This document shows positions 1,093 to 51,811 of a DNA stretch of 64,000 nt, piece after piece; within the stretch, counting starts at the first letter, position 1, and every line of letters begins with the position of its first letter. The stretch lies in contig JAJYEX010000006.1 in the NCBI GenBank assembly GCA_021785515.1, forward strand, positions 100,251 to 164,250. Reading direction: 5' to 3'. Origin of the DNA: Pseudomonadota bacterium (lineage in GTDB: Bacteria > Pseudomonadota > Gammaproteobacteria > Acidiferrobacterales > UBA6901). A model generated the notes under the pieces. The model ran no database searches, had not been told where the DNA came from, and worked only from the letters and a program-made list of their open reading frames with translations. The translations under genes and the position numbers were made by a program.

Positions 1093-1133
1093 TACTGGAC
1101 AATAATTTGCGACCACTCGCCACGGAGCGCCTG

Positions 1134-1463
1134 ATGACTGACCCCCTCTGCCAGATCGTTATCACGACCCTGCCTGACGGCCAAGCCGCACAGCGGCTGG
1201 GCACTACCCTCGTAGGGGAAGGCCTTGCAGCCTGCGTTAACATTCTGCCCGCGGGCCAATCCATATATACTTGGCACGGTAAGATAGAAACTGCGACGGA
1301 GTGCCTGGTTCTCGTCAAATCCCTGACAGCACGCTACAAGGCAATTGAGGAACGGATCCGCGCGCTGCACCCGTACGAACTTCCCGAAATTATCGCTGTC
1401 CCAATCGCGGACGGATTGTCCGCTTACCTAGCATGGCTCCACAACCCGGATACTGCTCCATGA
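1134..1463 (+). CDS. cutA: Divalent cation tolerance protein CutA
   Basis: GLAACVNILP...SIYTW...HPYELPEIIAVP motifs; upstream of dsbD as usual. Confidence 0.95.
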   Translation: MTDPLCQIVITTLPDGQAAQRLGTTLVGEGLAACVNILPAGQSIYTWHGKIETATECLVLVKSLTARYKAIEERIRALHPYELPEIIAVPIADGLSAYLAWLHNPDTAP

Positions 1464-30925: not shown

Positions 30926-31993
30926 TCAACGTGGTTTCGCCCTTTCGTATTGCACCGGCCACGCCAGGTCGACCCCTAGCAAGCGCGCCGCATGCAGCGG
31001 CCAGTAGGGATCCCGCAACAGCTGACGGGCAAGCAGTACTGCATCGGCAAGGCCGGTTGCGACAATCTGTTCGGCCTGGAACGCATCCGTAATCATTCCC
31101 ACGGCGCCCGTGGGGACCTGCGCACGGCTGCGGACCGCGGTCGCGAAGGGCACCTGGAATCCGGGGCCTGCAGGAATACGCGCGTCCGCAATCAAGCCAC
31201 CGCTCGAACAATCGATGAAATCGATTCCTGCTGTCCGGAGATGGCGTGCCAGCTCGATCGACTGCTCTAGGTCCCAGCCGCCATCGGCCCAGTCGGTGGC
31301 CGATATGCGCACGAACACCGGCAGGTCCTGGGGCCACACGTCGCGCACTGCACGCGCGACGCGCAGGGGAAGGCGCATCCGGTTCTCCAGACTGCCGCCG
31401 TACTCATCATCCCGCCGATTGCTGAGCGGCGACAGGAATTGATGCAGCAGGTAACCGTGCGCCATGTGTATTTCCGCCACGGCGAAGCCAACGCGGGCGC
31501 TGCGGCGCGCCGCATCGGCAAACTCGGTCACTACATGGTCGATATCGGCAGCGGTAAGCGCGGCCGGAACCGGGGAACCGGGGGAAAAAGGTACCGCGCT
31601 TGGCGCCAGGGGCTGCCAGCCGCCCGCATCCGGCCGCAGGGGCGCACCTCCACGCCATGGCGCATCCGTAGACGCCTTGCGTCCGGCGTGCGCCAGCTGT
31701 ATGGCAGGTACCGCGCCCTGATCGGCGATGAAGTGCGCAATGGGGGCGAGCGCCTCGGCGTGGGCCTGTGACCAGATTCCAACATCATGAGGTGAAATGC
31801 GGCCCGCCGCACTCACCGCGGCCGCCTCAGTCATGACCAGGGCGGCGCCTCCGACCGCACGGCTACCCAGGTGAACCAGGTGCCAGGACGTGGCAAAGCC
31901 GTCCGGCGCCGAGTACTGGCACATCGGTGAAACGAAGATGCGATTCCGGAAACGGAGTCCACGCATCTGCAGAAACGAAAACAGCTGGCTCAT
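30926..31993 (-). CDS. Old Yellow Enzyme family NADH:flavin oxidoreductase (YqjM/NamA-like)
   Basis: SPMCQYSA, QLAHAGRKAS, HMAHGYLLHQFLSP, LLRDPYWP. Confidence 0.92.
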   Translation of the reverse strand: MSQLFSFLQMRGLRFRNRIFVSPMCQYSAPDGFATSWHLVHLGSRAVGGAALVMTEAAAVSAAGRISPHDVGIWSQAHAEALAPIAHFIADQGAVPAIQLAHAGRKASTDAPWRGGAPLRPDAGGWQPLAPSAVPFSPGSPVPAALTAADIDHVVTEFADAARRSARVGFAVAEIHMAHGYLLHQFLSPLSNRRDDEYGGSLENRMRLPLRVARAVRDVWPQDLPVFVRISATDWADGGWDLEQSIELARHLRTAGIDFIDCSSGGLIADARIPAGPGFQVPFATAVRSRAQVPTGAVGMITDAFQAEQIVATGLADAVLLARQLLRDPYWPLHAARLLGVDLAWPVQYERAKPR

Positions 31994-33080: not shown

Positions 33081-34817
33081 TCACTGCGGATCGTGGGGCT
33101 GCTCCGGAGTGCGGTACATTTCCTCGATCTCCCTGGCAAAGTGCTCCTCGATCCTGCGCCGGCGCAATTTGAGCGTCGGCGTCAGCAGCTGATTCTCGAC
33201 AGTCCAGGGCTCGGTGACCCGGGCGATGTGGCGCACCCTGGCGTATCCGGGAAAGCTCCGCAGCCGGTCATTGGCCCGCTGGCACAGGACGCGCTCATCG
33301 GCCAGCTCGCTGACCACCAGCAGCCCGAGATGAGGCCGACCCTCGCCTACCACCATCACCTGCTGGAACACCGGATCGAGCAGGATCATCTGTTCAGCGT
33401 CCGCCGGCGGGATTTTTTCCCCGTTGCTAAGCACGATAATTTCCTTGGCACGACCCACGATGTAAATCCGTCCATCCTTGATGTGCGCCAGGTCTCCCGT
33501 ATGCAGCCAGCCGTCGGCGTCGATCATGGCGGCGGTAGCCGCGGCATTGTTCCAGTAACCCAGCATCACCTGAGGGCCGCGCGCCAGCAGTTCGCCGCTG
33601 TCGAGCGTTCTGACCTCGACCCCAGCGATCGGCCGGCCTACGGACGTCGGATCGTTGTCGCCGAGGCGATTGCAGCTCACGACCGGCGAGAACTCAGTAA
33701 GACCATATCCCTGCAACAGGGGTAGACCGAGGCCGAGAAACGTGCGTGAAAGCTGGGGCACCAGGGCCGCGGCGCCGGAAACAATCAGACGCATGCGACC
33801 ACCGAGATGGCCGCGCAGCTTGCGGCCAACCAGCGCGTCCAGCACCGGCCACAGCAGGCGGTCGCGCACGCGCAACTGTCCAGTGAACCGCCGCCATCCG
33901 ACATCGACTGACATGTCGAACAGGCGTCGGCGAAACGAACCTGCCGGCAGATTCTCCTGCATGCGTGCATAGATGCGCTCGAAGATCCGCGGTACGCACA
34001 CCATAAGCGTCGGACGCTGGCTCAGCAGGTCCTCGGAGAGCTGCGGTATGCCACGCGCAAAAACGGTGAGGGCCCCGACGCAGACTGCCATATAGTAGCC
34101 AACGGTACGCTCGAACATGTGTGAGAGCGGCAGAAACGACAGAAAGACGTCGTCCGCAGCGACACTGGGCACGGCATCGAGGCTGGTGCTCATGTCGCTG
34201 ACGATGTTACGGTGGCTCAGCATCACGCCCTTGGGCCGCCCGGTTGTCCCTGAGGTATACACCAGGGTCGCCAGATCCGCGGGTTGTGCCGGACCGGATT
34301 CCGGTAATTCACCCTCGGCCGGTAACCATGCGGACAGGGCTACTGCGGTTGCGTCACCCGCCGGCGCATTGTTGACGCAGACCACGCGCATAAGCGCCGG
34401 CAACTGTCCGTGTAGGCTGCGCCACAGTTGACCATCTTCGAGGAGAAGAAGGCGCACGCCGGCGTCATCCATGCACCAGGCCATGTTATCCGGCCTGTCG
34501 TTGTAGAACAGTGGTACCACCACCAACCCGAGGCCCAGGGCCGCCTGGTCGAACAGCACCCACTCGATCCGGTTTCGCATGCACAGCGCCACCCGGTCTC
34601 CAGGTCTGAGACCTTCGCTGCGCAGCGCCACCCGCCAGCGTCCCACTTCGACCCCTGCCTGCGCCCAGGTAATATCTTGCCAACACCCCCGGTTTTCATC
34701 GTCCGGCGCGTCCGGGTCCGGATGATGCTGGCGGTAGGCCGGCACGTCCGGCGTATCGGCGATGCGCGCCAGAAACAGCTCCGGCAAGGTCGTTCGCTCG
34801 GTGACCGGAATCCGCAT
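33081..34817 (-). CDS. Long-chain fatty acyl-CoA synthetase (AMP-dependent)
   Basis: YTSGTTGRPKGV, LPLSHMFER, QGYGLTE, WLHTGDL, LTPTLKLRR. Confidence 0.93.
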   Translation of the reverse strand: MRIPVTERTTLPELFLARIADTPDVPAYRQHHPDPDAPDDENRGCWQDITWAQAGVEVGRWRVALRSEGLRPGDRVALCMRNRIEWVLFDQAALGLGLVVVPLFYNDRPDNMAWCMDDAGVRLLLLEDGQLWRSLHGQLPALMRVVCVNNAPAGDATAVALSAWLPAEGELPESGPAQPADLATLVYTSGTTGRPKGVMLSHRNIVSDMSTSLDAVPSVAADDVFLSFLPLSHMFERTVGYYMAVCVGALTVFARGIPQLSEDLLSQRPTLMVCVPRIFERIYARMQENLPAGSFRRRLFDMSVDVGWRRFTGQLRVRDRLLWPVLDALVGRKLRGHLGGRMRLIVSGAAALVPQLSRTFLGLGLPLLQGYGLTEFSPVVSCNRLGDNDPTSVGRPIAGVEVRTLDSGELLARGPQVMLGYWNNAAATAAMIDADGWLHTGDLAHIKDGRIYIVGRAKEIIVLSNGEKIPPADAEQMILLDPVFQQVMVVGEGRPHLGLLVVSELADERVLCQRANDRLRSFPGYARVRHIARVTEPWTVENQLLTPTLKLRRRRIEEHFAREIEEMYRTPEQPHDPQ

Positions 34818-34818
34818 G

Positions 34819-36864
34819 CTAGGCCTGCGACCCGGCGTCACGGGTGAAGAGATCAGACCTCCCCCACGCCTCATCGGGTTCGAAACGGGGCCCGTATTCC
34901 TGCGCCAACCGCCGCAGACTGCTGGAGATGCCAACCTCGCCCAGCGCTTCAGCGTAGCGCATGGGCCCGCCGAGATAAGGGGCAAAACCGGTACCGAAAA
35001 CCATGCCTGCATCAACCGCGTCGAGATTATCCACTACCCCTTCGCGCACACAGGCGACGGCTTCGTTCAGCATACGCAGGATAAGTCTTTCGGTGACGGG
35101 CAGGTCGCTGTGCCCGCGAACCGGGCGGCGCCGTGGCTTGCCGGACTTGTCGTAGGCATAAAAACCTTTTCCGGACTTTTTTCCGAGATCGCCGCGACCA
35201 ACCGTCTCACGCAGACGTTCGGGCACCGGAATACCGAGCGGACCGGAAAGCATCTCCGCCACCGACAGGCAGATATCGAGGCCGACGGTGTCAGCCAGCA
35301 GCACCGGGCCCATCGGCATGCCGAAGCGGGTCGCGGCATCATCGATCTCCTCGATGGCGACACCTTCCTGCGACAGCATCATCGCCTCGATGAGATAGGG
35401 CATCAGTACACGGTTCACCAGGAATCCCGGGCTGCTCCGGACATCCAGCGGCATCCGGTCTATGGCGACAGTAAACGCCCGGGCACGCTCCACCGACGAG
35501 TCACTGGTCTGCCGGCCACGCACGATTTCGACCAGCTGCATCTGCGCTACCGGATTGAAGAAATGCAGTCCCACCAGACGCGAAGGATCGCGCAGGGCTT
35601 CGCCCAGTACTTCCAGGGGGATACTTGAGGTGTTGGTGGCCAGCAGCGTCTCCGGTCGCACCCTTCGCTCGATGTCGCGAAGCAATTCACACTTGGTAGC
35701 CGCCTTCTCCACGATCGCCTCGATAACGAGATCGGCCCGCCCCAGTCCGTTGCCATCGAGGTCGGGCATCAACCGGTCCATGGCGTCCTGGATTGCCACC
35801 GGCTTTTTGAGTTTTTTCCGATAGAATCCATAGGCCTTCTTGATCGTTCCGGCCAGAGCCTCTGGCCGCTGGTCCTGCAGGCTGACACGAAAGCCCCTGG
35901 ACGCAGCCCAGATGGCGATGTCACCACCCATGATACCGGCACCCACAACATGGACATGGGCCACACCGTGCGGCTGCCGGCGTCCCTGGCGTTTTAGCTT
36001 CTCGCCGAGCAGAAAAATGCTCACCAGGTTCCTGCTGGTGCGCCCAACCATCAACTCACTCAGCGATCGCGCCTCCTCTTCCTGCGACGCGCCTCGGCGC
36101 CAGAGCTCAAGCGCCCGATAGGGGGCGGGATAATGGTCGGGATTGACCTTTTTCCGCAGCTGCCGCTGCAGCAGGCGCGTCACCGGTTTGCGCAACGGCG
36201 ACCAGGCGGGTACCCGTTTCCACCAGGCCGCGCGACGCTGCCGGGGATGGCGCGCGACGAATGCGTGCGCGGCACGGAGCAGATGTCTTTCGGGTACCGT
36301 CTCGTCAACCAGGCCGAGAGCACGCGCCTGGTGGGCGCTCACGGTGCGCCCCGACAGAATGAGGTCGAGCGCCGCCAGGTCACCAATGAGCGGTGGCAAG
36401 CGAACCGTTCCGGCAAAACCCGGATGGATTCCCAGCCGCACTTCTGGCAGACCCAGCCTGGTCGCATCGTCCTCGCGTGCGATACGATAGGTACAGGCAA
36501 GCGCAAGCTCCAAACCGCCGCCCAAACAGTGTCCGTGAATCAGCGCCACACTGGGATACGGCAAGCGGGCCAACCGGTTGAACACCGCCTGCCCAGCACC
36601 GGCAAGGGAAACTGCCTGCGCCATGTCCGAGATTTTTTGGAATTCATTGACATCCGCGCCTACGATGAAGCTGTTGGATTTGGCCGAACGGATAATCACA
36701 CCATTGAGCGGACGGCTTTCGATCTGAGCCAGGATGCGGTCAAATTCTGCGAGCACTTCTGCAGACAGTGCATTGGCTCGCTGGCCCGCCACGTCAAGCG
36801 TCAGCACGATGGTTTCGTCAACCTCCTCGCTGCGCCAGTGTACGGCGTCGATATCGGAGCTCAT
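34819..36864 (-). CDS. fadJ: Multifunctional enoyl-CoA hydratase/3-hydroxyacyl-CoA dehydrogenase (FadJ/FadB type)
   Basis: GGGLELALAC, LPEVRLGIHPG, GAGIMGGDIA, ATNTSS, HFFNPV, PGFLVNR; ATGA overlap with thiolase. Confidence 0.9.
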   Translation of the reverse strand: MSSDIDAVHWRSEEVDETIVLTLDVAGQRANALSAEVLAEFDRILAQIESRPLNGVIIRSAKSNSFIVGADVNEFQKISDMAQAVSLAGAGQAVFNRLARLPYPSVALIHGHCLGGGLELALACTYRIAREDDATRLGLPEVRLGIHPGFAGTVRLPPLIGDLAALDLILSGRTVSAHQARALGLVDETVPERHLLRAAHAFVARHPRQRRAAWWKRVPAWSPLRKPVTRLLQRQLRKKVNPDHYPAPYRALELWRRGASQEEEARSLSELMVGRTSRNLVSIFLLGEKLKRQGRRQPHGVAHVHVVGAGIMGGDIAIWAASRGFRVSLQDQRPEALAGTIKKAYGFYRKKLKKPVAIQDAMDRLMPDLDGNGLGRADLVIEAIVEKAATKCELLRDIERRVRPETLLATNTSSIPLEVLGEALRDPSRLVGLHFFNPVAQMQLVEIVRGRQTSDSSVERARAFTVAIDRMPLDVRSSPGFLVNRVLMPYLIEAMMLSQEGVAIEEIDDAATRFGMPMGPVLLADTVGLDICLSVAEMLSGPLGIPVPERLRETVGRGDLGKKSGKGFYAYDKSGKPRRRPVRGHSDLPVTERLILRMLNEAVACVREGVVDNLDAVDAGMVFGTGFAPYLGGPMRYAEALGEVGISSSLRRLAQEYGPRFEPDEAWGRSDLFTRDAGSQA

Positions 36865-38159
36865 TTCGGCTCTCCCTGAACACGCACGAGCATCGCGCCA
36901 CCCTGACCGCCACCGATACACAGCGTGGCGACGCCGAGCCCTCCGCCATGACGTCGCAGCGAGCGCAACAGGTGCAGGACAAGGCGCGCGCCGCTTGCTC
37001 CGACAGGGTGGCCGGTTGCGACCGCGCCGCCGTCGATGTTCAGACGCGATGGATCCATGGGGCCAGGAGGCGCGTCGAGGCCAAGTTCATCGCGGGCGTA
37101 CTCAGGACTCGCCCAGGCAGCCTGGCAGGCGAGAACCTGTGCTGCGAAAGCTTCGTTGAGCTCCATCTGCTGAATATCCCTCATCGCTAGGCCGAAACGG
37201 CCGAGCAGTTTCGACACTGCATGAACCGGACCGAGCCCCATCTGGGCTGGATCGACCCCAGCCCATTCATCGCCAAGAATCTCACCCAGCACCGGCAGAT
37301 TGTAACGCTGCACCGCGGCCTCGCTGGCCAGCACCAACATGGCTGCGCCGTCAGTCACCTGTGAACTGTTGCCGGAGGTCACGGAGCCGTACTTGCTGTC
37401 AAACACCGGCCGGAGTCTGGCCAACTGCTCCATGTCTGAATCCCGGCGCAGGCCGGTGTCTTCCTGATAGATGCGGCCGCGGCGATCGTACAGCGGCTCG
37501 ACCTCGCCGCGCATCTGCCCGGTGTCGTAGGCAGCGGCCAGACGCTGGTGGCTGCTCAGCGCGTAGGCATCCTGCTCTGCCCGGCTGATGTCGAAGCGGT
37601 GTGCAACAATCTCTGCCGTCTGTCCCATGTTCAATTTCACCAGAGGATCAGTCAGGCCGAGCAACAGTGTGTATACCGGCACCAGATGGGACAGACGGAA
37701 CCCGCCGATGGCCCGCAGACGCGCAATGGGATTGCGCGCCCGCATGACCGCGGACAGCCAGCCCACCATGGCAGTGTTCCACTGGATCGGCGCGTGACTC
37801 ATCGCCTCGGTGCCACCAGCCAGCACCAGATGCGACCGTCCCTGGGCGATGCGTTCGCGCGCGGTCGCCAGCGCCTGCAGCCCGGAAGCACAATTGCGCT
37901 GGACGGTGAACGCAGGAACGGTCTTGCCGCATCCCAGGCGCAGCCCGATAATGCGTGCGATATTCGCTTCGTCCGGTGCCGGAATCACACAGCCGACGAT
38001 GATCTCATCGATGTGGTCCGGCGCAAACGGCGCGCGCGCCAGCAACGGGCGGGCAGCAGCCACCGCCAGATCGCCGGCACTGAACTCGTTCGCCTGGCCG
38101 CGCGCCTTCAGAAATGGCGTGCGTGCACCGTCGATGACGTAAACCTTCGCATCCGACAT
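36861..38159 (-). CDS. fadI: 3-ketoacyl-CoA thiolase (FadI type)
   Basis: RNCASG, NEAFAAQ, GHPVGASGAR, CIGGGQG. Confidence 0.9.
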   Translation of the reverse strand: MSDAKVYVIDGARTPFLKARGQANEFSAGDLAVAAARPLLARAPFAPDHIDEIIVGCVIPAPDEANIARIIGLRLGCGKTVPAFTVQRNCASGLQALATARERIAQGRSHLVLAGGTEAMSHAPIQWNTAMVGWLSAVMRARNPIARLRAIGGFRLSHLVPVYTLLLGLTDPLVKLNMGQTAEIVAHRFDISRAEQDAYALSSHQRLAAAYDTGQMRGEVEPLYDRRGRIYQEDTGLRRDSDMEQLARLRPVFDSKYGSVTSGNSSQVTDGAAMLVLASEAAVQRYNLPVLGEILGDEWAGVDPAQMGLGPVHAVSKLLGRFGLAMRDIQQMELNEAFAAQVLACQAAWASPEYARDELGLDAPPGPMDPSRLNIDGGAVATGHPVGASGARLVLHLLRSLRRHGGGLGVATLCIGGGQGGAMLVRVQGEPK

Positions 38160-38271
38160 AGTGGTCTCCAAAAAATTCTCCGCGCGACGAAAAGCTGTCG
38201 CTGATGCTGCTTGTTGTTATCAAAATAAAACATGCCTCACAGACCCGCCCGCGATTTGCAGTAGCTGGATA

Positions 38272-41200
38272 CTATGACCCCGGACGTCGCCTGCCGCCAA
38301 ACCCTTCGCCGTCAGACGCGAGGTCGCCGTGGGTCCCCAGCCGCTGCAGCAGCACCGGCACCCATTCTTCGATCGCACCCACACAGCGGATCACCTGCGG
38401 CCCCGGATTCTGGTGGGACCAGCTAAAGATGGGCGCGCCCGGATCGCGGTTTATGGCCACCACCACCGCGCCCGGATCGATCCAGCCCATGTGTTGGGGA
38501 GCCCCGGATATGCCCAGTGCCACCAGCAGCGCAGGCGCCACCCGCACACCGGTCTGGCCGATCTGCCGGTCAACCGGCAGCAGCTTGAGCTCCTGGGTAA
38601 CCTTGCGGCTTGCCCCCAGCTCCACGTTCGTCCCGCTCAGCCGCGCGAGTGCCGCACACAACGGCGGCACCAACTGCGGGTAATCCGGCCGGCTCGCGGC
38701 GCCAAGACCAACGTCGACGATTAGTCTGGCTGTGGGCAGGCCTGCGGGCGGCTGGTCATGGCTGCGCGCCAGCGCCGGACTGCGCAGGCGCTCCACGGGC
38801 AAGCGGCTCACCGGGATCACGGCCGATGGCGATGCGCCGAGCGTCGGTCCACTGTATCCCCGACCGACTACCAGCACGGCTGCATCCGGAAGGGGATATT
38901 CCACCTCGTAGCCGTCACTGGAGCAGGTTACGACCCGCGGGCTTATACCGCTTACCCCGTCCAAAAACCTTAGCCCGAGGCGAGCGGCGAGCACCGCCCC
39001 AAGCGCACCGTGTTCCGCATCGAGGATCAGACGACGCGACGCACCCAGCTGGCCGGCCAACAACCCAGCCAGCGCCGCCGGCAGTGCTTCCCCGTTTATC
39101 GGCAGCTGCCACAGACCCCTGAATCCCGGCTGGGCCAGAAGCGCTGCGGGTGCGGGAGGCGTAGCGGCGGCGGAATGCCATGCCAGCACACCGAAACTGA
39201 TACCGAGCCCGGCAAGCACCTGCAATGCTGGTGCCCGACCGGCACCTGCCAGCGTGTCTGTCGAGGTCAACCACAGCGTGCCGTCGGGCAGTGGTGAATT
39301 CCCAGGACGGGTGGCCGCTGCCCGGTCCGATGTGGCGCCAGCACCGAAGCGCTTCTGCAACCACGCGGCCAGTTCATTGGCATCGGCAAATTGCTGAGGG
39401 AGGTCCGTACCAGGAGGCGGCGCCTGGGACCGCACGGCGGTGGGCGCCAACCCCCCGGCCACCTCGGCACGTGGCACTGGCTCCCGCAAGGCCGCCAGCC
39501 AGCTACGCACGCTGTAGCGCGTGGCCCGATCTCCTGGTTTCAGATCCCAGGCCAGAGCTATGCGGCGCGCGTCGGCCGCATAGCGCCGCCGCCAAGACGC
39601 GTCGTCGAGCCAGAGTCCGCGTCTGCGCAAACCGATGGCCGTCACATTTTTTACCAAAACCGCGGCAATTGACTCGGACATGCCGGAAACGAAAGCCGCG
39701 TCTCCGGCACTGGCCGCGGAACAGCCCAGCGCCCAGCGCCCGAGTGCCGGCCAGACACCCAGAATTACGCTAGCGGCATCGGACGCCGAAACGGGGCCAG
39801 CGGGTTGGACGACATGCAGGACTTCAGCACCCGCGGCCTGCAGCCGGCGCAAGGAGTCCGCGATGCCGGGCGGTCCGATCGCAGCAATCTTCACCCGCAT
39901 GGACGAACACCCATCGGACCAGCACAGCATCCTGTCGAGCACTGCCAAATCGGCAGAATTCCATCCGGCCCATTCGAGGCGGCCCCCCACGGGCTCAAAG
40001 CGGCTGCGCAGCACCACGCCCCAGTCCCCCACTAACGCACCGACAGCGACGGGCTCGTCTTCGGCGCTTCCGGTCCGGGACAGCGCTGCCCGGGCCAGTG
40101 CCAGACCGGCGTCTGCCGGATCCGGACCTGCTCTGCGCTCGGCCCTGGCGAAATCCGCCTGTATCATGTCGGCCACTTCCCGCGCATGCCGGGCGATATC
40201 GGTTTCGCTGTCCCGCAGGCGGGCGATGTTCTCCCGGTCTGCGGGGTCCCCCAGAGATTCCAGCAACCGGACGCGTTCGTGCAGCGCTGCCCAGCCGTAA
40301 AGTTCGGCTAGCCAGTCGACCACAGGAAACCAGCGCGCCTGCAGATCTGGATTCTGCCACAGACCGGAATCCAGCCCGGCCACGCGTGCCGCGGTGAATT
40401 GGCGAAACTTCTGCAGCGCCTGCTCGAGTTCGGCATTGTCGTGGACGGAGACAGCTGGCTCGCGCAGCAGCGCCGGAAGATCCTTCAATACGAGGAACCT
40501 TTGAACCTCGTTGGTGCCTTCGTAAATGTTCAGGATCCGTATATCGCGCCGCCACTTTTCCAGCATCACCTCGCAGGCAGCGGCGTCCGCGCCATACAGT
40601 GTATCCAGCCAGCCGAGAATGCGATGTGCCCCCTCGGAGGCGAGATACTTGGAAAGCGCTGCTTCAATCCGGAAATCTCCCTGCCGCAGGTCGGCCCGAT
40701 CCATCAGACCCATGAGGCGCGCGGCCAGTGTCTGCAGGCGGTCGCACTCCGCCTGGGCCGCGCCATGCAGCTGCGGATCCTTGCGCCACACTGGCAGGAA
40801 ATCCCGCAGTGCGCGTTCCGCGAGCGCTGCGCAACTCATAACGAGACCGCCGCGCCCGACGCTCAGCGTCTCGAGCGCGTTCACCTGGCCGTGGCCCGCG
40901 AAACCGATCATCTGGTCGGCGCTTACGCGCACCCGGTCGAGGGTGAGCTCATTGGTGGGCGACGCGCGCTGGCCAAGCTTGTTTTCATTCGGACCGATAT
41001 GCAAACCTTCTGAACGCCGCTCCAGCATGAAGCCGGTCTCGCCGAATCCGGTCTGCGCATACAGGCAATAGCGATCGGCGACCGAACCGTTGGTTATCCA
41101 CATCTTGTTTCCCGACAGCTCCCAGTAGCGATAGCAGGCCTTGCCGTTACGGACGACAATCGTTCCGATATCGTCGTAGGGATAGGTATGATCGCCCGTG

Positions 41201-44200
41201 CGTATCTGGCGTCGCCCGCAATTGCGCGCCATGTCCCAGTCGCTGTCGTCGAGACTGGCCAGGCGGCCATCCGGCAAGCGGAAAAACGGGCGGCGGCGCT
41301 CGAATACCAGACGCTGCGCATCCAGCAGCAGGCGCGGTTTTCCGTCCACGTTGAACCGGTACAGGCCGTGCTCGTCCTGCTGCACCTCCGCCTCCCTCAG
41401 TAATGCGCGCGTCTGGATGCCGCCGGTGTCGGAACCGGCTGCCGGCTCGGTCAGCGCAAAGGCGCTGATCTGCCCGCAGGCGAGAAACTGCAGAAAGCGC
41501 TGATGGGCGCCGGTGCGCGCCTCGATTTCGCCCTGCTCGTCCGCGAGCCGTGCCCGGGCCTGCGGCAGACCGTCGCGAGCGCGCTGCAGACAGTCGGCCA
41601 GCGCCCTGAGGTCACTGGCCTTGGCCGCCGCCACAGTCTGCTGCACCAGCTGCAGAAAATCGCGCACCAGGTACTTCAGCGTCGAACCCGGAAAGAGAAA
41701 CAGGCGCTGCACCAGCGCCCCGGTATGCTCCAGCGCACGCCGGAGCGCACCACGCTCGGGACGCTCCACTATCCGGATCAGCCGGTCCAGGCCGTCCTGC
41801 AGCGACTGCCACCCGGCCGTATCGGCCAGGCACCCGGACGTCTCCTGCCGCAGCCGCGGCAGATCCTTTTCGAGCCCGAGCAGCACGGGCATGGTGCCAA
41901 TGCTGGTGCTGGCCATGATCAACAGGCCGGTGGCCGTGTCCTTTTCGGCCATGCACAGATTGGTAAGCACCGAGTATTGCGCCTTGCTCCAGTTCTTCCC
42001 TCCGAATACTTCCGGCACGATGGTGGCAAAGGCGTTGAAATCACGCAGCAACTGGATGTCGGCCGGCGGCATTCCGTGCATTTCGTCGATATAACGACCG
42101 TATGGCTGCTTGCGGTTCGGGCTGCGAAAGCCGCGACGCAACAGCCGCAGCACATCGGCGCGCGTACGACGCAACAGCGGGTCTCGGCGGAAATGCTCCG
42201 GGACGAGCAGGCTGTCCGGTGCAAGCAGCTGGCCGTTCAGGAAGCTGCCGCTGTGATAGGCGAACCGGACATGCGGCTTCCATCTGAGCGGGCGAACCGG
42301 CGCCGGCGGCCGGCGTTGAAGGATTGCGGCCCGGGGCGGTGCTAGCGCCCCCAAATGCTGGTGACTGTCTGCAAGGCAGGTCAGACTCTCGGATACGACG
42401 GGATCGACGTCGGATTCCGGTGCCCACTTGAGCACGCGCGCGCCGAAACCGGGATCGGTTTTGCCCAGCGCGCGGGATCCAGGCCACTGGCTGAACACGA
42501 TGGCGTCACGGTAACGCGGCGCCAGAATGTCCTCTTCGGAATAGGCCATGCCTCCGAACGCCTGTCCGGCGAGCCAAGGCACGGCGGTCATCCACGGACC
42601 CATGCACTCCCGCACCAGCAGTAACACCTGTTCCGGTTCACGTTCGCACCAGCAGCGCGCCAGACCGAGCAACGTGCAGGCGTATTCAATGCCTGCCAGC
42701 ATCTGCTTTACCGCTCCGAATTTTGCGATGCTCTCGCGGCCTTCACTGTCACGAAGTTCGCCGCGAAACTGGACGCGGGTCGATGCGTAATCCACCGCCC
42801 GACGACGCAGCTCGGCAGCCTGGCCGAGGGCCAGAGCCAAGCCAAGCTCTGCTGCCGCAGATGTGGCATGGAAACCGCCTGGATCCTGCTCCACGAGCCG
42901 ACGCACCGGCTGGGCGGCATCGGCACCAGCGCCGTGCGCAACCGCTCCCCCGGCATGCAGCACGCTCCCGTCAGCCGCTACAAGCACCTCGGCAACGGCC
43001 GGCAGCCAGTTCGAGCTTCCGTCTTCCTCGCGCCACAGCGGCGCTGCAATGAGATGTTCGATAGGCCGTCGTGCGCAGATTTCGGCCAGGTAATGTCCTG
43101 CGGCGATCCAGGCGAGGGCGCCTGACCAGGTAGCGAGCCATTCGACTGCGGTCGTACGGTGACTTCGCGCGGCGGCGATCCACGCACACAGGACGTTGCG
43201 GCTCCCCAAATCCCAGGGCGCCTGCGCCAGAGCCTTCAGCCTGTCTGCCGAGAAATACCGCTGCAGCTGCTCCCACTCATGCCGCCTACGCAGATCTGCG
43301 TGCACACCGGGTTCGCGCACACCGCGCGTGTCGACTGGCAACGCCCCGGCCTGCTCCAGCAGCGCCCGAGTTTCGCTTTCCATCCAGCCGTAGGCCTGAC
43401 GCTTAAGCCAGGCCTCGAGCCGCACCACCGTGGAATGCGTCAGTCCGCTTGCAGGAACCTCCCCCAACAGCCTTGCCCAGGCACGCGGCCATTCCGCCGT
43501 CACCATTGCCGGTCGGACACGCAACGAACAATACAGACGCTGCCAAGAGGTGATCTCCGATTGAATGAGATGGAGCGCGTCTTGCGGAGGCGGATCCAGG
43601 TTCGATGTCACGGAAGAATCCAGACCGCTGCGGCTATCCCCGGGCACCCGGTAGGCAAACCGGTGGCCGCTGGTGCGGTTCCAGTCCACGCCCGGCACCG
43701 TCACGCGACAGGATTCGCATTTGATGCAGTTTTCGTGCTGGCTCGCAACACCGCCGAGGCGGCCAGCCAGGCTGTAGACTTCGGCGGGACAGACGTTGCG
43801 CAACTGCCGGGCTGCGGAGCCAAGATCCACGGGAACCGTGATATGTCGCGGATCGGGCCGGTAACGCAGCAACGGAGCGATCCAGCCGGTGGGGGACAAG
43901 GGGCTGCGGTGGGCACCGCCCCAGTCCAGCTTCTCGCGCGCCTTCTCTTCATAACCGTGGTAGGGCAGCTGCTGCAGTGCCTGCAGGCGCAAACGGCCTG
44001 TGCGGTAGGCCGCAAGATCAGAGAGCAGTGCGGCACCGCCCGCCAATGCGCCGAGAGACAGGCGGGTAACCCGCGGCAGCACCAGCGGTGCGCGCACCAT
44101 GCTACGCCAGACCATCGCCACGCGGTCGGAAAATTCGGGCAGGCGTCGGCCATAGAAATGGCCGATCGCCTGAGCCGCCAGCTGCAGCAGCGGGTCGTTC

Positions 44201-45603
44201 TTCGCCGCGATCGGAGCGGGCGGGCCGCAGGCGCCTGATGTCAGGAACTGGACCGCCAGGGGCTCGACCGCATATTTCACGCGCCGCTTGGGCCCCATTC
44301 CACGCGCCAGCCGCAACAGCTGCGTCGAGTCACGCCGCAGGCGCGTGAGCTCCATGCCCAACGCACGTCGACGCTGGGCGCGCGCGGCGGCCGGAGCTAG
44401 GCGGCTTGCATCCACCAGCTGGCCCAGCAGGGCGGGAATATGGTCAAACAGCGCCGGGCCCCTGTGAAGCGTCGTCGGCCATCGGCGGATGAGTGCAGCA
44501 TTGCGATAATCGGTGGTGCCGCGCAATGCCTCGGCATATTCAAGCTCCAGTTCATTACGAGTGTAACGGGAGCCCTTGCTGCGTATGCGCAGCACCGCAT
44601 CGGCAAAAGTCAGTGCGCTGGCAATGGCGGGGGCAACAAAGTTTGGATAGGGCACCTCCTGCCCGAGTCCGAGGCAGCCGCCGCCAACCGCCAGTCCGTC
44701 TCGCACCCACTGCGGCGTCTCGTCAACTCCCCCCGAACGGATCACCTTGGCGCCATAAGCGATTTGCTGCGCGCCTTCAAGATAGTAAGCAATGGACGAG
44801 AGCGCGCGCACCCGCTCAAACAGATGAGCGTGGTCGGCAACAGACTGCTGTGCCAGGCGCTCGAGCGGAAGCACCAGTCCAAGCGAGAGGGAGTTTTGGT
44901 TCGTATACAGGAAAGCGGTCACATTAAGCCGCACGGCATGGCCCGCGTAGCGACCGTTGCGCAACATCCATTCCTGCGCCACGCCTTCGCCCGGACTCAA
45001 TTGGAAGCGCTCCTCGATCCGGGCCGCCGGCAGGGAGAACAGCGCCTTGATGCCTTGCGCGTAATGCAGATGCGCCTGACGTTCCAGTCCCTCGCGTGCC
45101 AACAGCCCGGCCGCGTCGCCTTCCGCGAGAAAGACCACTTCGGCGTTGATCGCGCCGCGGTCAGTCGTTACGCCTACAACGCGGTCTCCACTGTAGCGCA
45201 GACCCGTCGCAGTCGTATCCGTGAGCAGCGTCACCCCAAATTCGACCGCGCGACTGGCCAGCCACCGGTCGAGCTTGGGGCGCAGGACCGTCCAAGCCTC
45301 GCCATAGTCGTTTCCCGCATGGGAGCGCGCCTCGAAGCCGGCCGCGTTGATGCCATCGTGCAGGAACAGGCTGCGACTGACGATGCGCCGTTCCTTGGGC
45401 GCCCGGGCCCACAGCTCCTGGCCGAGCACGTCTTCGCGCAGCAGGCCCTCCGCATGATAGACGCAGCCTGACCAGTTCTCCGCCCCGGCGTATTCGGCCC
45501 CCTCGATCAACATCACCGCAACTCCAGCGCGAGCCAGCCGCAGCGCCGCTGCGGTGCCAGCGGGCCCGGCTCCGATGATGAGGACTTCTGGCGGGGAGGG
45601 CAT
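38272..45603 (-). CDS. ~2,440-aa fusion: FixC/FixX (ETF-QO-like) + two acyl-CoA dehydrogenase modules + EtfB-like + EtfA
   Basis: GAGPAG FAD motif; CPAEVY...CIKCESC Fe-S motif; RVQF / QAFGGMAY; FALTEPAAGSD, KMWITNG, IYEGTNEVQR; C-terminal GASR..., QIGQTG, GISGAPQH, AINRDPGAPIF; uninterrupted ORF; start at ATG 45603 inferred. Confidence 0.9.
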   Translation of the reverse strand: MPSPPEVLIIGAGPAGTAAALRLARAGVAVMLIEGAEYAGAENWSGCVYHAEGLLREDVLGQELWARAPKERRIVSRSLFLHDGINAAGFEARSHAGNDYGEAWTVLRPKLDRWLASRAVEFGVTLLTDTTATGLRYSGDRVVGVTTDRGAINAEVVFLAEGDAAGLLAREGLERQAHLHYAQGIKALFSLPAARIEERFQLSPGEGVAQEWMLRNGRYAGHAVRLNVTAFLYTNQNSLSLGLVLPLERLAQQSVADHAHLFERVRALSSIAYYLEGAQQIAYGAKVIRSGGVDETPQWVRDGLAVGGGCLGLGQEVPYPNFVAPAIASALTFADAVLRIRSKGSRYTRNELELEYAEALRGTTDYRNAALIRRWPTTLHRGPALFDHIPALLGQLVDASRLAPAAARAQRRRALGMELTRLRRDSTQLLRLARGMGPKRRVKYAVEPLAVQFLTSGACGPPAPIAAKNDPLLQLAAQAIGHFYGRRLPEFSDRVAMVWRSMVRAPLVLPRVTRLSLGALAGGAALLSDLAAYRTGRLRLQALQQLPYHGYEEKAREKLDWGGAHRSPLSPTGWIAPLLRYRPDPRHITVPVDLGSAARQLRNVCPAEVYSLAGRLGGVASQHENCIKCESCRVTVPGVDWNRTSGHRFAYRVPGDSRSGLDSSVTSNLDPPPQDALHLIQSEITSWQRLYCSLRVRPAMVTAEWPRAWARLLGEVPASGLTHSTVVRLEAWLKRQAYGWMESETRALLEQAGALPVDTRGVREPGVHADLRRRHEWEQLQRYFSADRLKALAQAPWDLGSRNVLCAWIAAARSHRTTAVEWLATWSGALAWIAAGHYLAEICARRPIEHLIAAPLWREEDGSSNWLPAVAEVLVAADGSVLHAGGAVAHGAGADAAQPVRRLVEQDPGGFHATSAAAELGLALALGQAAELRRRAVDYASTRVQFRGELRDSEGRESIAKFGAVKQMLAGIEYACTLLGLARCWCEREPEQVLLLVRECMGPWMTAVPWLAGQAFGGMAYSEEDILAPRYRDAIVFSQWPGSRALGKTDPGFGARVLKWAPESDVDPVVSESLTCLADSHQHLGALAPPRAAILQRRPPAPVRPLRWKPHVRFAYHSGSFLNGQLLAPDSLLVPEHFRRDPLLRRTRADVLRLLRRGFRSPNRKQPYGRYIDEMHGMPPADIQLLRDFNAFATIVPEVFGGKNWSKAQYSVLTNLCMAEKDTATGLLIMASTSIGTMPVLLGLEKDLPRLRQETSGCLADTAGWQSLQDGLDRLIRIVERPERGALRRALEHTGALVQRLFLFPGSTLKYLVRDFLQLVQQTVAAAKASDLRALADCLQRARDGLPQARARLADEQGEIEARTGAHQRFLQFLACGQISAFALTEPAAGSDTGGIQTRALLREAEVQQDEHGLYRFNVDGKPRLLLDAQRLVFERRRPFFRLPDGRLASLDDSDWDMARNCGRRQIRTGDHTYPYDDIGTIVVRNGKACYRYWELSGNKMWITNGSVADRYCLYAQTGFGETGFMLERRSEGLHIGPNENKLGQRASPTNELTLDRVRVSADQMIGFAGHGQVNALETLSVGRGGLVMSCAALAERALRDFLPVWRKDPQLHGAAQAECDRLQTLAARLMGLMDRADLRQGDFRIEAALSKYLASEGAHRILGWLDTLYGADAAACEVMLEKWRRDIRILNIYEGTNEVQRFLVLKDLPALLREPAVSVHDNAELEQALQKFRQFTAARVAGLDSGLWQNPDLQARWFPVVDWLAELYGWAALHERVRLLESLGDPADRENIARLRDSETDIARHAREVADMIQADFARAERRAGPDPADAGLALARAALSRTGSAEDEPVAVGALVGDWGVVLRSRFEPVGGRLEWAGWNSADLAVLDRMLCWSDGCSSMRVKIAAIGPPGIADSLRRLQAAGAEVLHVVQPAGPVSASDAASVILGVWPALGRWALGCSAASAGDAAFVSGMSESIAAVLVKNVTAIGLRRRGLWLDDASWRRRYAADARRIALAWDLKPGDRATRYSVRSWLAALREPVPRAEVAGGLAPTAVRSQAPPPGTDLPQQFADANELAAWLQKRFGAGATSDRAAATRPGNSPLPDGTLWLTSTDTLAGAGRAPALQVLAGLGISFGVLAWHSAAATPPAPAALLAQPGFRGLWQLPINGEALPAALAGLLAGQLGASRRLILDAEHGALGAVLAARLGLRFLDGVSGISPRVVTCSSDGYEVEYPLPDAAVLVVGRGYSGPTLGASPSAVIPVSRLPVERLRSPALARSHDQPPAGLPTARLIVDVGLGAASRPDYPQLVPPLCAALARLSGTNVELGASRKVTQELKLLPVDRQIGQTGVRVAPALLVALGISGAPQHMGWIDPGAVVVAINRDPGAPIFSWSHQNPGPQVIRCVGAIEEWVPVLLQRLGTHGDLASDGEGFGGRRRPGS

Positions 45604-46192
45604 GATTTTATTCTTCCGTATCCTAGTAGTTATAGCAAAGCCGGGCAGGAAGACAGCGACCACCGGGCACGCTGGATTAATGGAGCATGGCGCGAGAGCC
45701 TGGGCGTAACCTTGGGTGGTGACCGACATGGGTGAGGGCCGCCTCTAACGAAAAGGTGGATGGACCGCAATCGGCAATATGTGGGTCGTGGGCAGCCCCG
45801 AGCGATGCGTTCAGGAAAGAAGGCGAATGAAGCGGCCATCGCGGGCTTTGGGAATATTGGGCTTCTGGCAGAGCGGGCGACCGGCAAACAGATTTAATGG
45901 TACGCCCGATGGAGGCGTTGCAGTGGAGCGACGCAACTTGGACCGCGCACCCCGACACAGCCGGACTTTTCGGGGCGCACCCGGGTCAAAGCACCGGTCG
46001 ATACTAAAGCGGTCAGTGCTTATGCCCCGTTTCTATGCCCCGGGCCACAGCAGCGGCGGCGTTGGTTGCGTGCTAGGGCGGTATGCAATTTTCCCTGAGC
46101 GCGGTAAATGCCCTTTTTTGCCAGCCCTGCTGCCAGTCAGCCCCGAGGCGCAGGGAATGGAAAGCATTAGATATGTAACCTATCATTTGTCC

Positions 46193-46221
46193 TATAATTA
46201 AATATTAGCAATGTCTAATAT
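46193..46221 (+). promoter_or_regulatory. -10 box and palindromic operator
   Basis: TATAAT at 46193-46198 followed by ATATTAG-CAATGT-CTAATAT (46202-46221) just before GGGAGG RBS. Confidence 0.65.
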
Positions 46222-46234
46222 ATTGGGAGGCAGC

Positions 46235-46717
46235 ATGGCTGACGCCGACAGGATCGCCTTGGCAGAGCGCGCTTATTGCACTGCTTTGCGCTATGAGCTC
46301 GATTACGGCTGTTGCCCCCAATGCGTACTGGTGACAATCCAGGAAATCGTGGGCCTGGTGGACGACGCCACGATTAAGGCCAGTCACGGCCTGTCCGGCG
46401 GTGGGGGGCTAAGCGGCAAAGGGGCATGTGGCGCCCTGGCCGGCGGCCTCCTGGCTCTGGGTGCCAAGCGCGGCCGTGATCGCGACAAGCTGAGCCAAGG
46501 TCGCGGCATGGGCAACTTTCAGAAGGCGCGCGAACTGGTCGACCGGTTCCGCTGTGAATTCGGCGGAATCACCTGCGAGGACCTTCAGCGGCGTTTCACC
46601 GGTCGCACTTACGATATGTGGAACCCGGCGGAATACACCGCTTTCAGTGAGGCCCGCGGCAACCAGTGCGCCCACGCCACTGCGACCGTCACCCGGTGGG
46701 TTGTCGAGATGCTCTAG
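46235..46717 (+). CDS. C_GCAxxG_C_C family putative redox-active protein
   Basis: GCCPQCV, GACGALAGG, FGGITCEDLQ, QCAH; ATG 46235 follows GGGAGG. Confidence 0.85.
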   Translation: MADADRIALAERAYCTALRYELDYGCCPQCVLVTIQEIVGLVDDATIKASHGLSGGGGLSGKGACGALAGGLLALGAKRGRDRDKLSQGRGMGNFQKARELVDRFRCEFGGITCEDLQRRFTGRTYDMWNPAEYTAFSEARGNQCAHATATVTRWVVEML

Positions 46718-50473: not shown

Positions 50474-51811
50474 TCAGACCTCGGAGCCCGGCGGAGCCGC
50501 GAGTGCGGGCCTGGTCTCTACGAACAACACATGCGGTGGCGGGGCCGTGTGGGCCTCTTCGATGGCACCGGCGACCCGCTCCATGAGCGCAGCCGCATCC
50601 TCACCGGCTGCCAGCAGACCCACCGCGCTGAAAAACGCCGGAAGCATGCGCGTCTCCCCCTCCAGCGGCAGATGAGTCTCGACGGCGCGCTTTTGCGCTT
50701 TTGCGAGCGCTCGCACCGCTCCATCACGCTGGACCCCGGGTAGCAGCACGGCAAACTGATGGCGGTCGTAGATGGCGACATAGTCGTAGGTACGGAAACC
50801 GGCCAAAATCTCCTCGGCGTAGCAGCGCAGAACCGCCTGTTCAGCGCCTTCGCCGTAACGGGCTATCAAGGCGTCAAGTTCTGCGATACCAATCAGCGCC
50901 ACCGCCAGCGAGCCGGTGTGGCGGCGCACACGCTCAATCTCGGATGTCAGCTGCTCGAGGAACGCTTCGCGGCGCGGCAGAACCGCGGTGCGCCGGACCC
51001 GCTTCCCGCCCGCCCGCACGGCCACGGTCTGTCGCGGGCTCCGGGTACGGCGCTGGCGCGCCCGGTCGAGCTCGGTACGCAGACGTTCGCGGTCCGATTC
51101 CACGGATTTGATGTGATCGGTAGCGCTGGCAAGCTGCCGCTCAAGCTCCATGCGTTCTCGCCGCAGCTCATCGAGGCTCCCGGCCCAGAGCTGTTTGAGA
51201 CTTCTAAAATCCTTGATGGCCCCGTATATTGCCCGCCAGGCACCAAGTTCCGACCGGCGCAAGCTCGCGTACCGCTGTTCCCCATCCCTTGCGATATGCC
51301 GATCACCCAGTGCGTGGTCCAGCCACTCCGCCAGACCCCCGTTGCCGTTCTCCGGTTCGTCCCGGGGCGGCACGGAACCGGACATCGGCAACTCATCGGT
51401 CTGCGGCTGGGGATACTGGTCAATGACAACCGGTTTGGGTGGCGCCGGCGTGAGCGGCTCTCCAATCCGGTTGATGGCATCGATATAGGACTGGAACGGG
51501 TTGTTTCGCACAGAGGCGCTGCCCGCTGGCACGAGATAGGGTGCGATGTGTTGCTGGATGACCCGGGCCTTGATGCGCAGTGCTGGCGGATTGTCGTCAT
51601 CGGAGGCATAGGCTCCAAGCTGGGCGTGCAAGCGGCCAACTGAAGCGCCACCCAGCTGCCGTCCCGATGCGGCCTCTTCGTTCTGATCGAGACCACACTC
51701 GAGGAGCCGCACCAGCCCACCGCCGTGGCCGCTGCGCCGCAGGCCTTCCACATGACGCCTCAGGGTTTGTGTCAGAGTCGGATCCGCGGAAACGAATTCG
51801 CTGACAGACAC
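50474..51811 (-). CDS. Degenerate GGDEF-domain protein with coiled coil
   Basis: Coiled-coil middle; RTYD I-site, DRHQF in place of GGDEF; C-terminus resembles the 24296 protein (CYAxEILAxFRxYDxVA). Confidence 0.75.
   Translation of the reverse strand: MSVSEFVSADPTLTQTLRRHVEGLRRSGHGGGLVRLLECGLDQNEEAASGRQLGGASVGRLHAQLGAYASDDDNPPALRIKARVIQQHIAPYLVPAGSASVRNNPFQSYIDAINRIGEPLTPAPPKPVVIDQYPQPQTDELPMSGSVPPRDEPENGNGGLAEWLDHALGDRHIARDGEQRYASLRRSELGAWRAIYGAIKDFRSLKQLWAGSLDELRRERMELERQLASATDHIKSVESDRERLRTELDRARQRRTRSPRQTVAVRAGGKRVRRTAVLPRREAFLEQLTSEIERVRRHTGSLAVALIGIAELDALIARYGEGAEQAVLRCYAEEILAGFRTYDYVAIYDRHQFAVLLPGVQRDGAVRALAKAQKRAVETHLPLEGETRMLPAFFSAVGLLAAGEDAAALMERVAGAIEEAHTAPPPHVLFVETRPALAAPPGSEV

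Follow-up and report, generated by a model that had tools for sequence, protein, structure and literature searches.

A single-chain fusion of acyl-CoA dehydrogenase, electron-transfer flavoprotein and quinone oxidoreductase modules as a predicted acyl-CoA:quinone oxidoreductase in Acidiferrobacterales and other bacteria

A 64,000-nt stretch of contig JAJYEX010000006.1 (positions 100,251–164,250; assembly GCA_021785515.1), from a gammaproteobacterium of the order Acidiferrobacterales and called the window throughout, carries on its − strand, at 38272..45603, one very long gene whose product resembles an acyl-CoA dehydrogenase (ACAD) joined to its entire electron-transfer chain. From the N to the C terminus, the product consists of a FixC-like flavin adenine dinucleotide (FAD) oxidoreductase module, a hydrophobic linker, an iron–sulfur (Fe–S) domain of the type found in FixX and in electron-transfer flavoprotein (ETF):quinone oxidoreductase (ETF-QO), a degenerate ACAD-like domain, a catalytic ACAD, an EtfB-like domain and EtfA. 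The original prediction, made from the sequence and its open reading frames (ORFs), had placed seven modules in this order, and all seven were recovered in it, each within about 100 residues of its proposed position. On the protein itself, the Pfam matches above gathering scores are the FAD-oxidoreductase Rossmann domain (residues 48–216), ACAD_M (1532–1600), ACAD_1 (1613–1749) and the ETF_alpha FAD domain (2331–2414), with ACAD_N (1208–1283) and ETFQO_UQ-bd (272–330) below threshold. A family profile built from 28 full-length members reaches three groups of solved structures: FixC, very-long-chain ACAD (VLCAD) together with ACAD9, and human ETF α. Conservation and segment profiles were taken from alignments cut from the window and 49 related loci (50 sequences), the profiles A6, A4 and A5 spanning residues 441–700, 701–1195 and 1880–2130, respectively.

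The stop-free frame runs from 45729 to 38272 and encodes 2,485 amino acids as the longest ORF, whose residue numbers are used here. Against 27 full-length homologues, residues 1–50 have a mean identity of 0.07 and a gap fraction of 0.81, and conservation begins at about residue 45. Because the first 42 or so residues are unconserved and a purine-rich AGGA..GGAAG stretch lies just 5′ of the ATG at 45603, this codon (residue 43) is most likely the true start, giving a product of about 2,443 amino acids, in line with the single uninterrupted ORF of about 2,440 that had been proposed. The GC content of the gene region (0.63–0.69) is similar to that of its flanks. Scans for promoters and terminators found sites no commoner than in shuffled sequence (2 versus 2.8 and 11 versus 10.6). 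The surroundings are those of an ordinary chromosome: rho, polA, uvrD, purH and dsbD all lie in the window, and with these core genes a mobile-element origin can be rejected.

In four metagenome runs from mine drainage, all of one study, Logan contigs span the gene with neither base differences nor indels. The DNA may itself derive from three of these runs, which makes this support weak and not independent. Independent support comes from other assemblies, in which the full frame is conserved: in 49 of the 70 loci kept, the frame stays open for 2,250 amino acids or more, and most of the others are cut by contig ends. The stops or frameshifts that would split the ORF thus appear in none of the contigs of the four runs, and on these sequences the ORF is to be read as real and not as an assembly artefact. 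Short, deeper contigs of the same runs match only two conserved ACAD stretches, at window positions 40948–41081 and 41888–41917, and in one of them a 67-base middle part is diverged; they suggest that the same samples also contain related strains or species that carry this gene.

The FixC-like module (44410..45603, − strand; residues 43–440) bears the dinucleotide motif GAGPAG and matches the NCBIfam FixC model PRK10157 with E = 2.5e-39 (residues 49–435 against profile positions 8–383 of 428). With the family profile, the match to Thermotoga maritima FixC (7koe_C) extends over the full length of the chain (E = 1.9e-54; 1–430 against 1–431 of 438), which bears out the homology that had been proposed for this region. 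The module is 31% identical to the genome's own FixC. It is followed by a linker (43897..44409, −; residues 441–611) for which the segment profile found no match in the PDB, and which contains a hydrophobic segment, LSLGALAGGAALLSDLAAY, at about residues 560–578. The best 19-residue Kyte–Doolittle window of this linker scores 1.92–2.66 in 30 of 30 members from outside Acidiferrobacterales (28 of them at 2.0 or above). The modules on either side depend on partners in the cytoplasm, which makes a re-entrant or monotopic anchor likelier here than a membrane-spanning helix.

The FixX/ETF-QO-type domain (43630..43896, −; residues 612–700) is recognized at the profile level. With the A6 profile, matches are obtained to the ferredoxin-like EtfX/FixX chain of T. 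maritima (7koe_D; E = 1.8e-7) and, within pig ETF-QO, to its [4Fe-4S] domain (2gmh_A residues 518–570; E = 1e-4), and hhalign pairs the segment with the genome's own FixX at 91.8% (E = 7.4e-7). Four cysteines, Cys647, Cys668, Cys671 and Cys674, form the pattern C..C-x2-C-x2-C and are invariant in 50 of 50 sequences. Since there are only these four, as in ETF-QO, against ten in the genome's own FixX, the domain probably holds one [4Fe-4S] cluster of the ETF-QO kind, as first suggested.

Downstream of a weakly conserved spacer with no assigned fold (43123..43629, −; residues 701–869; identity 0.25–0.37), for which a profile search of the PDB returned matches at chance level only, lies the first of two ACAD-like domains (42460..43122, −; about residues 870–1090). 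Pfam gives no ACAD match over this part of the protein. A single-sequence phmmer comparison with butyryl-CoA dehydrogenase (1buc_A) reaches E = 0.015 (residues 941–1086 against 224–370), and the A4 profile matches the same chain with E = 8.8e-5 and Thermus thermophilus ACAD (2dvl_A, chain residues 70–351) with E = 0.0014. An exhaustive A4 search of 1.84 billion representatives returned 198 proteins at E ≤ 1e-3, 83 of them at E ≤ 1e-30. The strong matches checked with Pfam (P0130, P0131, P0122 and P0198) are family members or pieces of them and many further strong matches are 2,200–2,900 amino acids long, while the weak tail reaches canonical ACADs of 338–385 amino acids (P0254, P0256 and P0257; E = 2e-7 to 4e-7). 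It is on these matches to canonical ACADs, and not on internal similarity, that the ACAD nature of the domain rests.

This middle domain carries three motifs that are invariant in 50 of 50 sequences: R985-x-Q987-F988; G1055-Q1056-x-F-G1059-G1060 followed by S1064-E1065; and Y1073-R1074-D1075 (x and the F before G1059 aside). At position 1083, which corresponds to the catalytic glutamate of ACADs, the 50 sequences have P (22), L (15), A (5), V (2), S (2), F, W or M (one each) and E in a single case, and the stretch equivalent to the β-sheet domain is shortened. The region had been described as an ACAD remnant; its ACAD-like identity stands, but a conserved module with invariant motifs is not mere debris.

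Beyond a poorly conserved linker (42145..42459, −; residues 1091–1195; identity 0.17 and gap fraction 0.19 over 1101–1150), the catalytic ACAD occupies 40480..42144 (−; residues 1196–1750), where it had been expected, with insertions in its N and middle domains. Both Pfam domains score well above their cut-offs (ACAD_M PF02770, 52 bits versus 33.3; ACAD_1 PF00441, 53.7 bits versus 22.4), and the match to VLCAD (3b96_A) reaches E = 7.8e-29 with the single sequence and 3.8e-60 with the family profile. TEPAAGSD (1427–1434), WITNG (1544–1548) and YEGTNE (1736–1741) are the counterparts of TEPxxGSD, W-I-[ST]-N-G and Y-E-G-T, which we take to be the FAD, substrate and catalytic motifs of ACADs. E1737, TEP.AGSD and W-I-[TS]-N are each found in 50 of 50 sequences, the glycine after the last in 49. 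The profile matches to VLCAD and ACAD9 (E = 1e-56 to 1e-60) continue into the C-terminal extensions of these enzymes, as seen with VLCAD 8ca1_B (chain residues 240–616), 3owa_A (177–549) and 2z1q_A (172–521), and so delimit a helical extension of the fused ACAD at 40162..40479 (−; about residues 1751–1856, an approximate range taken from profile positions).

The two ACAD-like domains complement each other in a way that goes beyond what the original prediction had noticed. VLCAD has R-T-Q-F-G and Q-I-M-G-G-M-G-F at positions that align with residues 1645–1655 and 1708–1719 of the catalytic domain, which lacks both conserved R-x-Q-F-G and Q-x-x-G-G equivalents and is unconserved there except at G1713. 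Conversely, R-x-Q-F and Q-x-x-G-G are invariant in the middle domain. Having lost these motifs, the atypical catalytic ACAD would need the corresponding contacts from elsewhere. In human short-chain ACAD (SCAD), R297 is presumably the arginine of R-x-x-F-G, and Q365 and G369 the glutamine and glycine of Q-x-x-G-G. In that enzyme, FAD lies at the dimer interface and is hydrogen-bonded by the adjacent monomer through R297, Q365 and G369 (PMC13027082). In the α2β2 ACAD ChsE4–ChsE5, the β subunit is described as binding the ADP-ribose of FAD and the α subunit as holding the isoalloxazine, the catalytic glutamate and the substrate (PMC11153573). Because the motifs lost in the catalytic domain are invariant in the middle domain, we suggest that the two form an intramolecular pseudo-heterodimer resembling the α2β2 ACADs.

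The chain ends with the two ETF subunits in the order EtfB–EtfA. The EtfB-like domain (39460..40032, −; about residues 1900–2090) is strongly diverged in the clade of the window and is recognized at the family level: the A5 profile matches the ETF β chains CarD (6fah_B; E = 3.2e-21), Acidaminococcus fermentans EtfB (4kpu_B; 9.3e-21), human ETF β (1efv_B; 3.5e-16, over 3–251 of 255) and its T. maritima counterpart (8.9e-12), and hhalign pairs the family with the genome's own FixA/EtfB at 94.7% (E = 6.4e-8; residues 1921–2087 against 65–241). The homology of this region, which had been called eroded, is thus supported at the family level, and its low conservation agrees with that description. 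The EtfA module (38320..39312, −; about residues 2140–2470), with its FAD domain at 2331–2414, bears out the earlier reading of its motifs: PF00766 (ETF_alpha) scores 58 bits against a 27-bit cut-off, NCBIfam mft_etfA covers residues 2213–2435 (E = 3.6e-17), the family profile matches human ETF α (1t9g_R, chain residues 22–332) with E = 4.9e-32, and G2372, R2375, QIGQTG (2389–2394), SGAPQH (2408–2413), N2427 and D2429 are present in all 49 sequences that cover the region. Taken over the 50 sequences and four phyla, the cofactor and catalytic motifs of the fusion, namely TEPxAGSD, WI[TS]NG, YEGTNE, the four cysteines and QIGQTG/SGAPQH, are invariant or nearly so.

The architecture is not confined to this genome. 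A word-indexed search found 317 proteins of 1,366–4,349 amino acids at E ≤ 1e-3, and among the 120 matches listed nearly all are 2,000–2,900 amino acids long with the same Pfam set; when each species is represented by one genome, relatives are encoded in 286 stretches. Within the order of the window, 30 of 102 other genomes carry the fusion (13 of the 18 genomes of its own family, 16 of the 19 of a second family and the only genome of a third), and four more match solely through a FixC paralogue. The closed 3.40-Mb genome of Acidiferrobacter sp. SPIII_3 encodes a 2,288-residue fusion (AWP24771.1/WP_110138391.1), whose 90% cluster includes 2,294-residue A. thiooxydans proteins named 'FAD-binding protein' or 'Protein FixC'. 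At least four phyla share the architecture, its members coming from the Acidiferrobacterales, Nitrospirota, Verrucomicrobiia and Planctomycetota. In a midpoint-rooted FastTree phylogeny of the 50 full-length sequences (2,225 columns; the 21 loci whose frame falls short of 2,250 amino acids were left out), sequences group by phylum and Acidiferrobacterales fall into two subclades, where the clade labels of loci L017–L034 were assigned by hand from similarity and from mostly generic 'Proteobacteria bacterium' titles. The fusion of L069, from a metagenome-assembled genome labelled Betaproteobacteria, nests inside the Nitrospirota clade, a placement that suggests either horizontal transfer or a binning error.

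A search for split forms, that is, for shorter proteins carrying residues 860–1195, returned only P0121 (1,275 amino acids). Two relatives, P0130 and P0131 (2,219 and 2,311 amino acids), begin with the Fe–S domain and have no FixC module, and there are FixC-headed relatives of 1,409–1,713 amino acids with no Pfam ACAD match, of which P0198 is the one checked. These could be split or intermediate forms, or truncations at contig ends.

In Acidiferrobacterales, the fusion heads a β-oxidation operon. Co-oriented on the − strand downstream of it, as originally noted, are a thiolase as the next gene (36861..38171; Thiolase_N E = 8e-66, Thiolase_C E = 3.3e-38), a FadB/FadJ-type enoyl-CoA hydratase/3-hydroxyacyl-CoA dehydrogenase (34819..36921; ECH_1, 3HCDH_N and 3HCDH) and an AMP-binding acyl-CoA synthetase (33081..35015; E = 4.2e-76), the last two at conserved positions. 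The longest ORFs overlap by 197 bases between synthetase and FadB/J (34819–35015) and by 61 bases between FadB/J and thiolase (36861–36921); the true starts probably lie further in, which would leave the genes closely packed or translationally coupled. In tblastn comparisons, thiolase and FadB/J lie directly downstream of the fusion in 22 of 70 loci, all Acidiferrobacterales-type, and the synthetase follows in 21 of these, L024 ending inside fadB/J; seven more Acidiferrobacterales-type loci end at or inside the fusion gene. Relatives had been sought together with their neighbourhoods, and the outcome is a full-length family in at least four phyla with an operon kept in the clade of the window.

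Other genes nearby have looser ties. Downstream of the operon, a 355-residue NADH:flavin oxidoreductase of the old yellow enzyme (OYE) family (30926–31993, −) keeps its position in the closest five loci (L006, L009, L011, L014 and L015; 76–82% identity) and might serve unsaturated acyl-CoAs as an accessory enoate or dienoyl reductase. Divergent from the start of the fusion, within 45779–46717 (+), are a 140-residue ORF that belongs to no Pfam family and a gene for a putative redox protein of the C_GCAxxG_C_C type, which turns up again upstream, opposite in strand, in L006 alone. Genes for several GGDEF diguanylate cyclases are also present, in the window at 24296–25636 (+) and 50474–51811 (−), and in L005 at 961–2169 (+).

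In the 3.05-Mb, 99.9%-complete genome that contains the window, PF00441 matches once, inside the fusion gene, and PF01012 matches only the adjacent fixA and fixB on contig 3. These belong to a fixA-fixB-fixC-fixX cluster (L005, that is, G000 contig 3: 58000–70000; 4184–10144, −) beside genes for the homocitrate synthase NifV and a serine O-acetyltransferase (cysE). The organism is probably a diazotroph, its only free ETF being the nitrogenase-linked Fix system. An absence of separate fadE and etf genes had been claimed for the window and holds there; genome-wide it does not hold for etf, given the fixABCX cluster beside nifV on another contig. By its domain matches, the fusion is nonetheless the only recognizable ACAD of the genome and its only non-Fix ETF and ETF dehydrogenase, which fits a replacement of FadE, EtfAB and ETF-QO by a single protein. 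Five other genomes of the genus have 1, 1, 1, 1 and 2 PF00441 matches, counts of the domain, whichever protein bears it.

Taken together, domain homologies, domain order, motif conservation, operon context and genomic uniqueness lead us to read the gene, with a probability of about two in three, as encoding a self-contained acyl-CoA:quinone oxidoreductase of about 265 kDa. In such an enzyme, the catalytic ACAD would oxidize acyl-CoA to enoyl-CoA on its own FAD with Glu1737 as the base. The fused EtfB–EtfA would accept the electrons singly on one FAD, held in EtfA's C-terminal domain, which would presumably swing as in free ETF. The FixX/ETF-QO-type domain would then take over the electrons on its single [4Fe-4S] cluster, from which they would go on to the FAD of the FixC-like domain and finally to the membrane quinone, with the hydrophobic segment of the linker and the FixC module tethering the chain to the membrane. 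The non-catalytic ACAD-like domain would probably pair with the catalytic ACAD of the same chain and supply the Arg, Gln and Gly contacts to the ADP-ribose of the ACAD FAD that are normally the role of the neighbouring subunit. One chain would then make one complete active site, with a total of three FADs and one [4Fe-4S] cluster.

Several observations weigh against this reading. At the quinone end, the FixC match of the query scores 135 bits, below the 610-bit NCBIfam cut-off, and so identifies no equivalog; ETFQO_UQ-bd (PF21162) reaches only 17.5 bits against 27.7 (E = 0.0063); Fer4_ETF_QO (PF05187) reaches 15.1 bits against 24; and the linker is weakly hydrophobic in the clade of the window, with 1.37 in the query and 1.13–1.92 in 20 Acidiferrobacterales-type sequences. 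At the ETF end, PF01012 has no match in the EtfB-like region of the query, the A5 segment has no invariant column and is the least conserved module, and its nucleotide (AMP) site may be lost. Between the two, hhalign finds no significant similarity of the middle to the catalytic domain (E = 0.075 and 0.13), so that their proposed pairing depends on motifs alone. As for context, the Acidiferrobacterales-type locus L010 has unrelated opposite-strand genes downstream, and among 40 loci from outside the order only L058 has thiolase and FadB/J downstream; the neighbours checked in three of these loci are unrelated housekeeping genes. Finally, the free FixAB ETF of the genome could in principle interact with the fusion. 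Distant relatives still score in Pfam for modules that are blurred in the query: the Verrucomicrobia-type P0074 (2,474 amino acids) has Fer4_ETF_QO (608–675; 33.2 bits, above the cut-off), ACAD_N (1191–1264), ACAD_M (1494–1566), ACAD_1 (1579–1724), ETF (PF01012; 1908–2073) and ETF_alpha (2339–2422), and PF01012 is above its cut-off in P0061 as well.

Some of these points feed an unlikely alternative in which the chain is not autonomous. It would work as a homodimer or larger assembly in which the catalytic ACADs of two chains pair as in VLCAD, or exchange electrons with free FixAB or other carriers, or both, the middle domain being a scaffold or regulatory part. VLCAD, ACAD9 and the long bacterial ACADs form homodimers, and the first two are the closest structural relatives of the catalytic domain; the lack of profile–profile similarity between the two ACAD-like domains and the presence of free FixAB point the same way. 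However, a homodimer partner would need to bring in R-x-Q-F-G and Q-x-x-G-G, and these motifs are missing from the catalytic domain, whereas the middle domain keeps them invariantly, and fixABCX adjoins nifV and cysE with no β-oxidation genes.

Less probable again is a bifurcating or confurcating machine of the Fix/EtfABCX type that has been fused to an ACAD and couples NAD(H), a low-potential ferredoxin or flavodoxin, quinone and acyl-CoA/enoyl-CoA. The solved protein nearest to the N-terminal module is indeed FixC of the bifurcating T. maritima EtfABCX, and the best EtfB matches are to the bifurcating CarD and A. fermentans EtfB. Yet the four conserved cysteines imply one cluster, in place of a cysteine-rich FixX, and the EtfB-like part, which would be the site of the bifurcating FAD and of NADH, is the module that has diverged most. 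The top EtfA matches, moreover, are to human mitochondrial ETF α (1t9g_R and 1efv_A), which we take to be non-bifurcating.

We give even lower odds to a reverse role as a quinol-dependent enoyl-CoA reductase, at least in menaquinone-using anaerobic lineages. The enoyl-CoA/acyl-CoA couple lies above menaquinone in potential, and the Verrucomicrobiia, Nitrospirota and Planctomycetota loci examined have no β-oxidation neighbours, but the operon partners in the clade of the window are a degradative set. That separate genes were merged by a lost stop or frameshift, a concern because the window belongs to a metagenome-derived draft of 22 contigs, can be dismissed, to the extent that sequences decide it, given 317 long homologues, intact frames in 49 of 70 loci from other assemblies, the frames of 2,288 amino acids in the closed SPIII_3 genome and 2,294 in A. 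thiooxydans, and contigs of four runs that show no indels.

The preferred reading, a self-contained acyl-CoA:quinone oxidoreductase, has a textbook counterpart. The ACAD → ETF → ETF-QO chain of mitochondria and proteobacteria, as represented by the complex of medium-chain ACAD (MCAD) with ETF (1T9G/2A1T), human ETF (1EFV) and pig ETF-QO (2GMH), has the same modules in the same functional order, with the YEGT glutamate, the ETF α FAD domain, a single four-cysteine [4Fe-4S] cluster and a FAD/quinone module, but in four or five separate polypeptides that meet by diffusion rather than in one chain. The fusion further differs from it in a quinone module that is FixC-like in sequence, in the roughly 170-residue hydrophobic linker before the Fe–S domain and in a strongly diverged EtfB. 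Fix/EtfABCX (T. maritima 7KOE and the genome's own FixABCX) has homologues of FixC, FixX, EtfB and EtfA, all of them in the fusion; among solved chains, 7koe_C matches the N-terminal module best, along its entire length, and 7koe_D the Fe–S domain. By contrast with the fusion, that system has separate subunits, no ACAD, NADH as donor and a cysteine-rich FixX; the EtfX of 7KOE presumably holds two clusters.

The ACAD part has its own parallels. Among solved structures, VLCAD, ACAD9 and long bacterial ACADs (2UXW, 3B96, 8PHF, 3OWA and 2Z1Q) match the catalytic domain best, its helical C-terminal extension included. VLCAD keeps R-x-Q-F-G and Q-x-x-G-G-x-G in the same chain, whereas the catalytic domain of the fusion has lost both and has extra insertions between its N and middle domains. 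The α2β2 ACADs of steroid degradation, ChsE4–ChsE5 and ChsE1–ChsE2, combine a catalytic ACAD with a non-catalytic paralogue, as proposed for the fusion. They are encoded by two genes and form a tetramer, whereas the fusion has both halves and the electron chain in one polypeptide, and its non-catalytic domain, of which about 220 residues match ACADs, is much reduced, its pairing being suggested by motifs. A natural single-chain EtfB-then-EtfA that works as an ETF is described for Sulfolobus acidocaldarius (PMC12042025); as described there, it is an ETF only, bifurcating, with two FADs and unjoined to its partners, which the fusion adds. For Nitrospina, the available part of the genome paper mentions only separate ETF and ACAD genes (PMC3578206).

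In full-text literature searches, we found no description of an ACAD–ETF–ETF-QO fusion, in agreement with the earlier statement that no enzyme of this architecture has been characterized. The parts and the pathway are textbook. What is new is the covalent union of the whole relay, an ETF-QO derived from FixC and FixX with a hydrophobic linker, and an apparent internal ACAD pseudo-heterodimer. A still bolder version, put forward tentatively and with slightly more doubt than assurance, is that the protein is a complete, ETF-independent acyl-CoA:quinone oxidoreductase built around that intramolecular pseudo-heterodimer, serves as the only ACAD of the cell for all chain lengths, and is in effect a frozen ACAD–ETF–ETF-QO supercomplex that would have been invented once and kept in at least four phyla.

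How ETF docks on a dehydrogenase and then on ETF-QO is known only in part; a crystal complex of MCAD with ETF and a cryogenic electron microscopy (cryo-EM) structure of bifurcating EtfABCX exist. To our knowledge, no canonical ETF:ETF-QO complex has been solved. A chain with all partners in a 1:1:1 ratio would open the whole wire from acyl-CoA to quinone to one cryo-EM or kinetic experiment, and the fusion would be a compact part for engineering β-oxidation. The α/β division of labour of the steroid ACADs may have arisen independently inside the fusion. In databases, the members of the family go by generic names, 'FAD-binding protein', 'Protein FixC' or 'acyl-CoA dehydrogenase family protein', so that metabolic reconstructions in which fadE, etfAB and ETF-QO are each counted as genes of their own could score β-oxidation as incomplete in metagenome-assembled genomes of Acidiferrobacterales, Nitrospirota and Verrucomicrobiia. 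Because cultured Acidiferrobacter thiooxydans carries an orthologue of the fusion, WP_065971523.1 with 2,294 amino acids, the interplay of ACAD, ETF and ETF-QO would be testable in a culturable organism.

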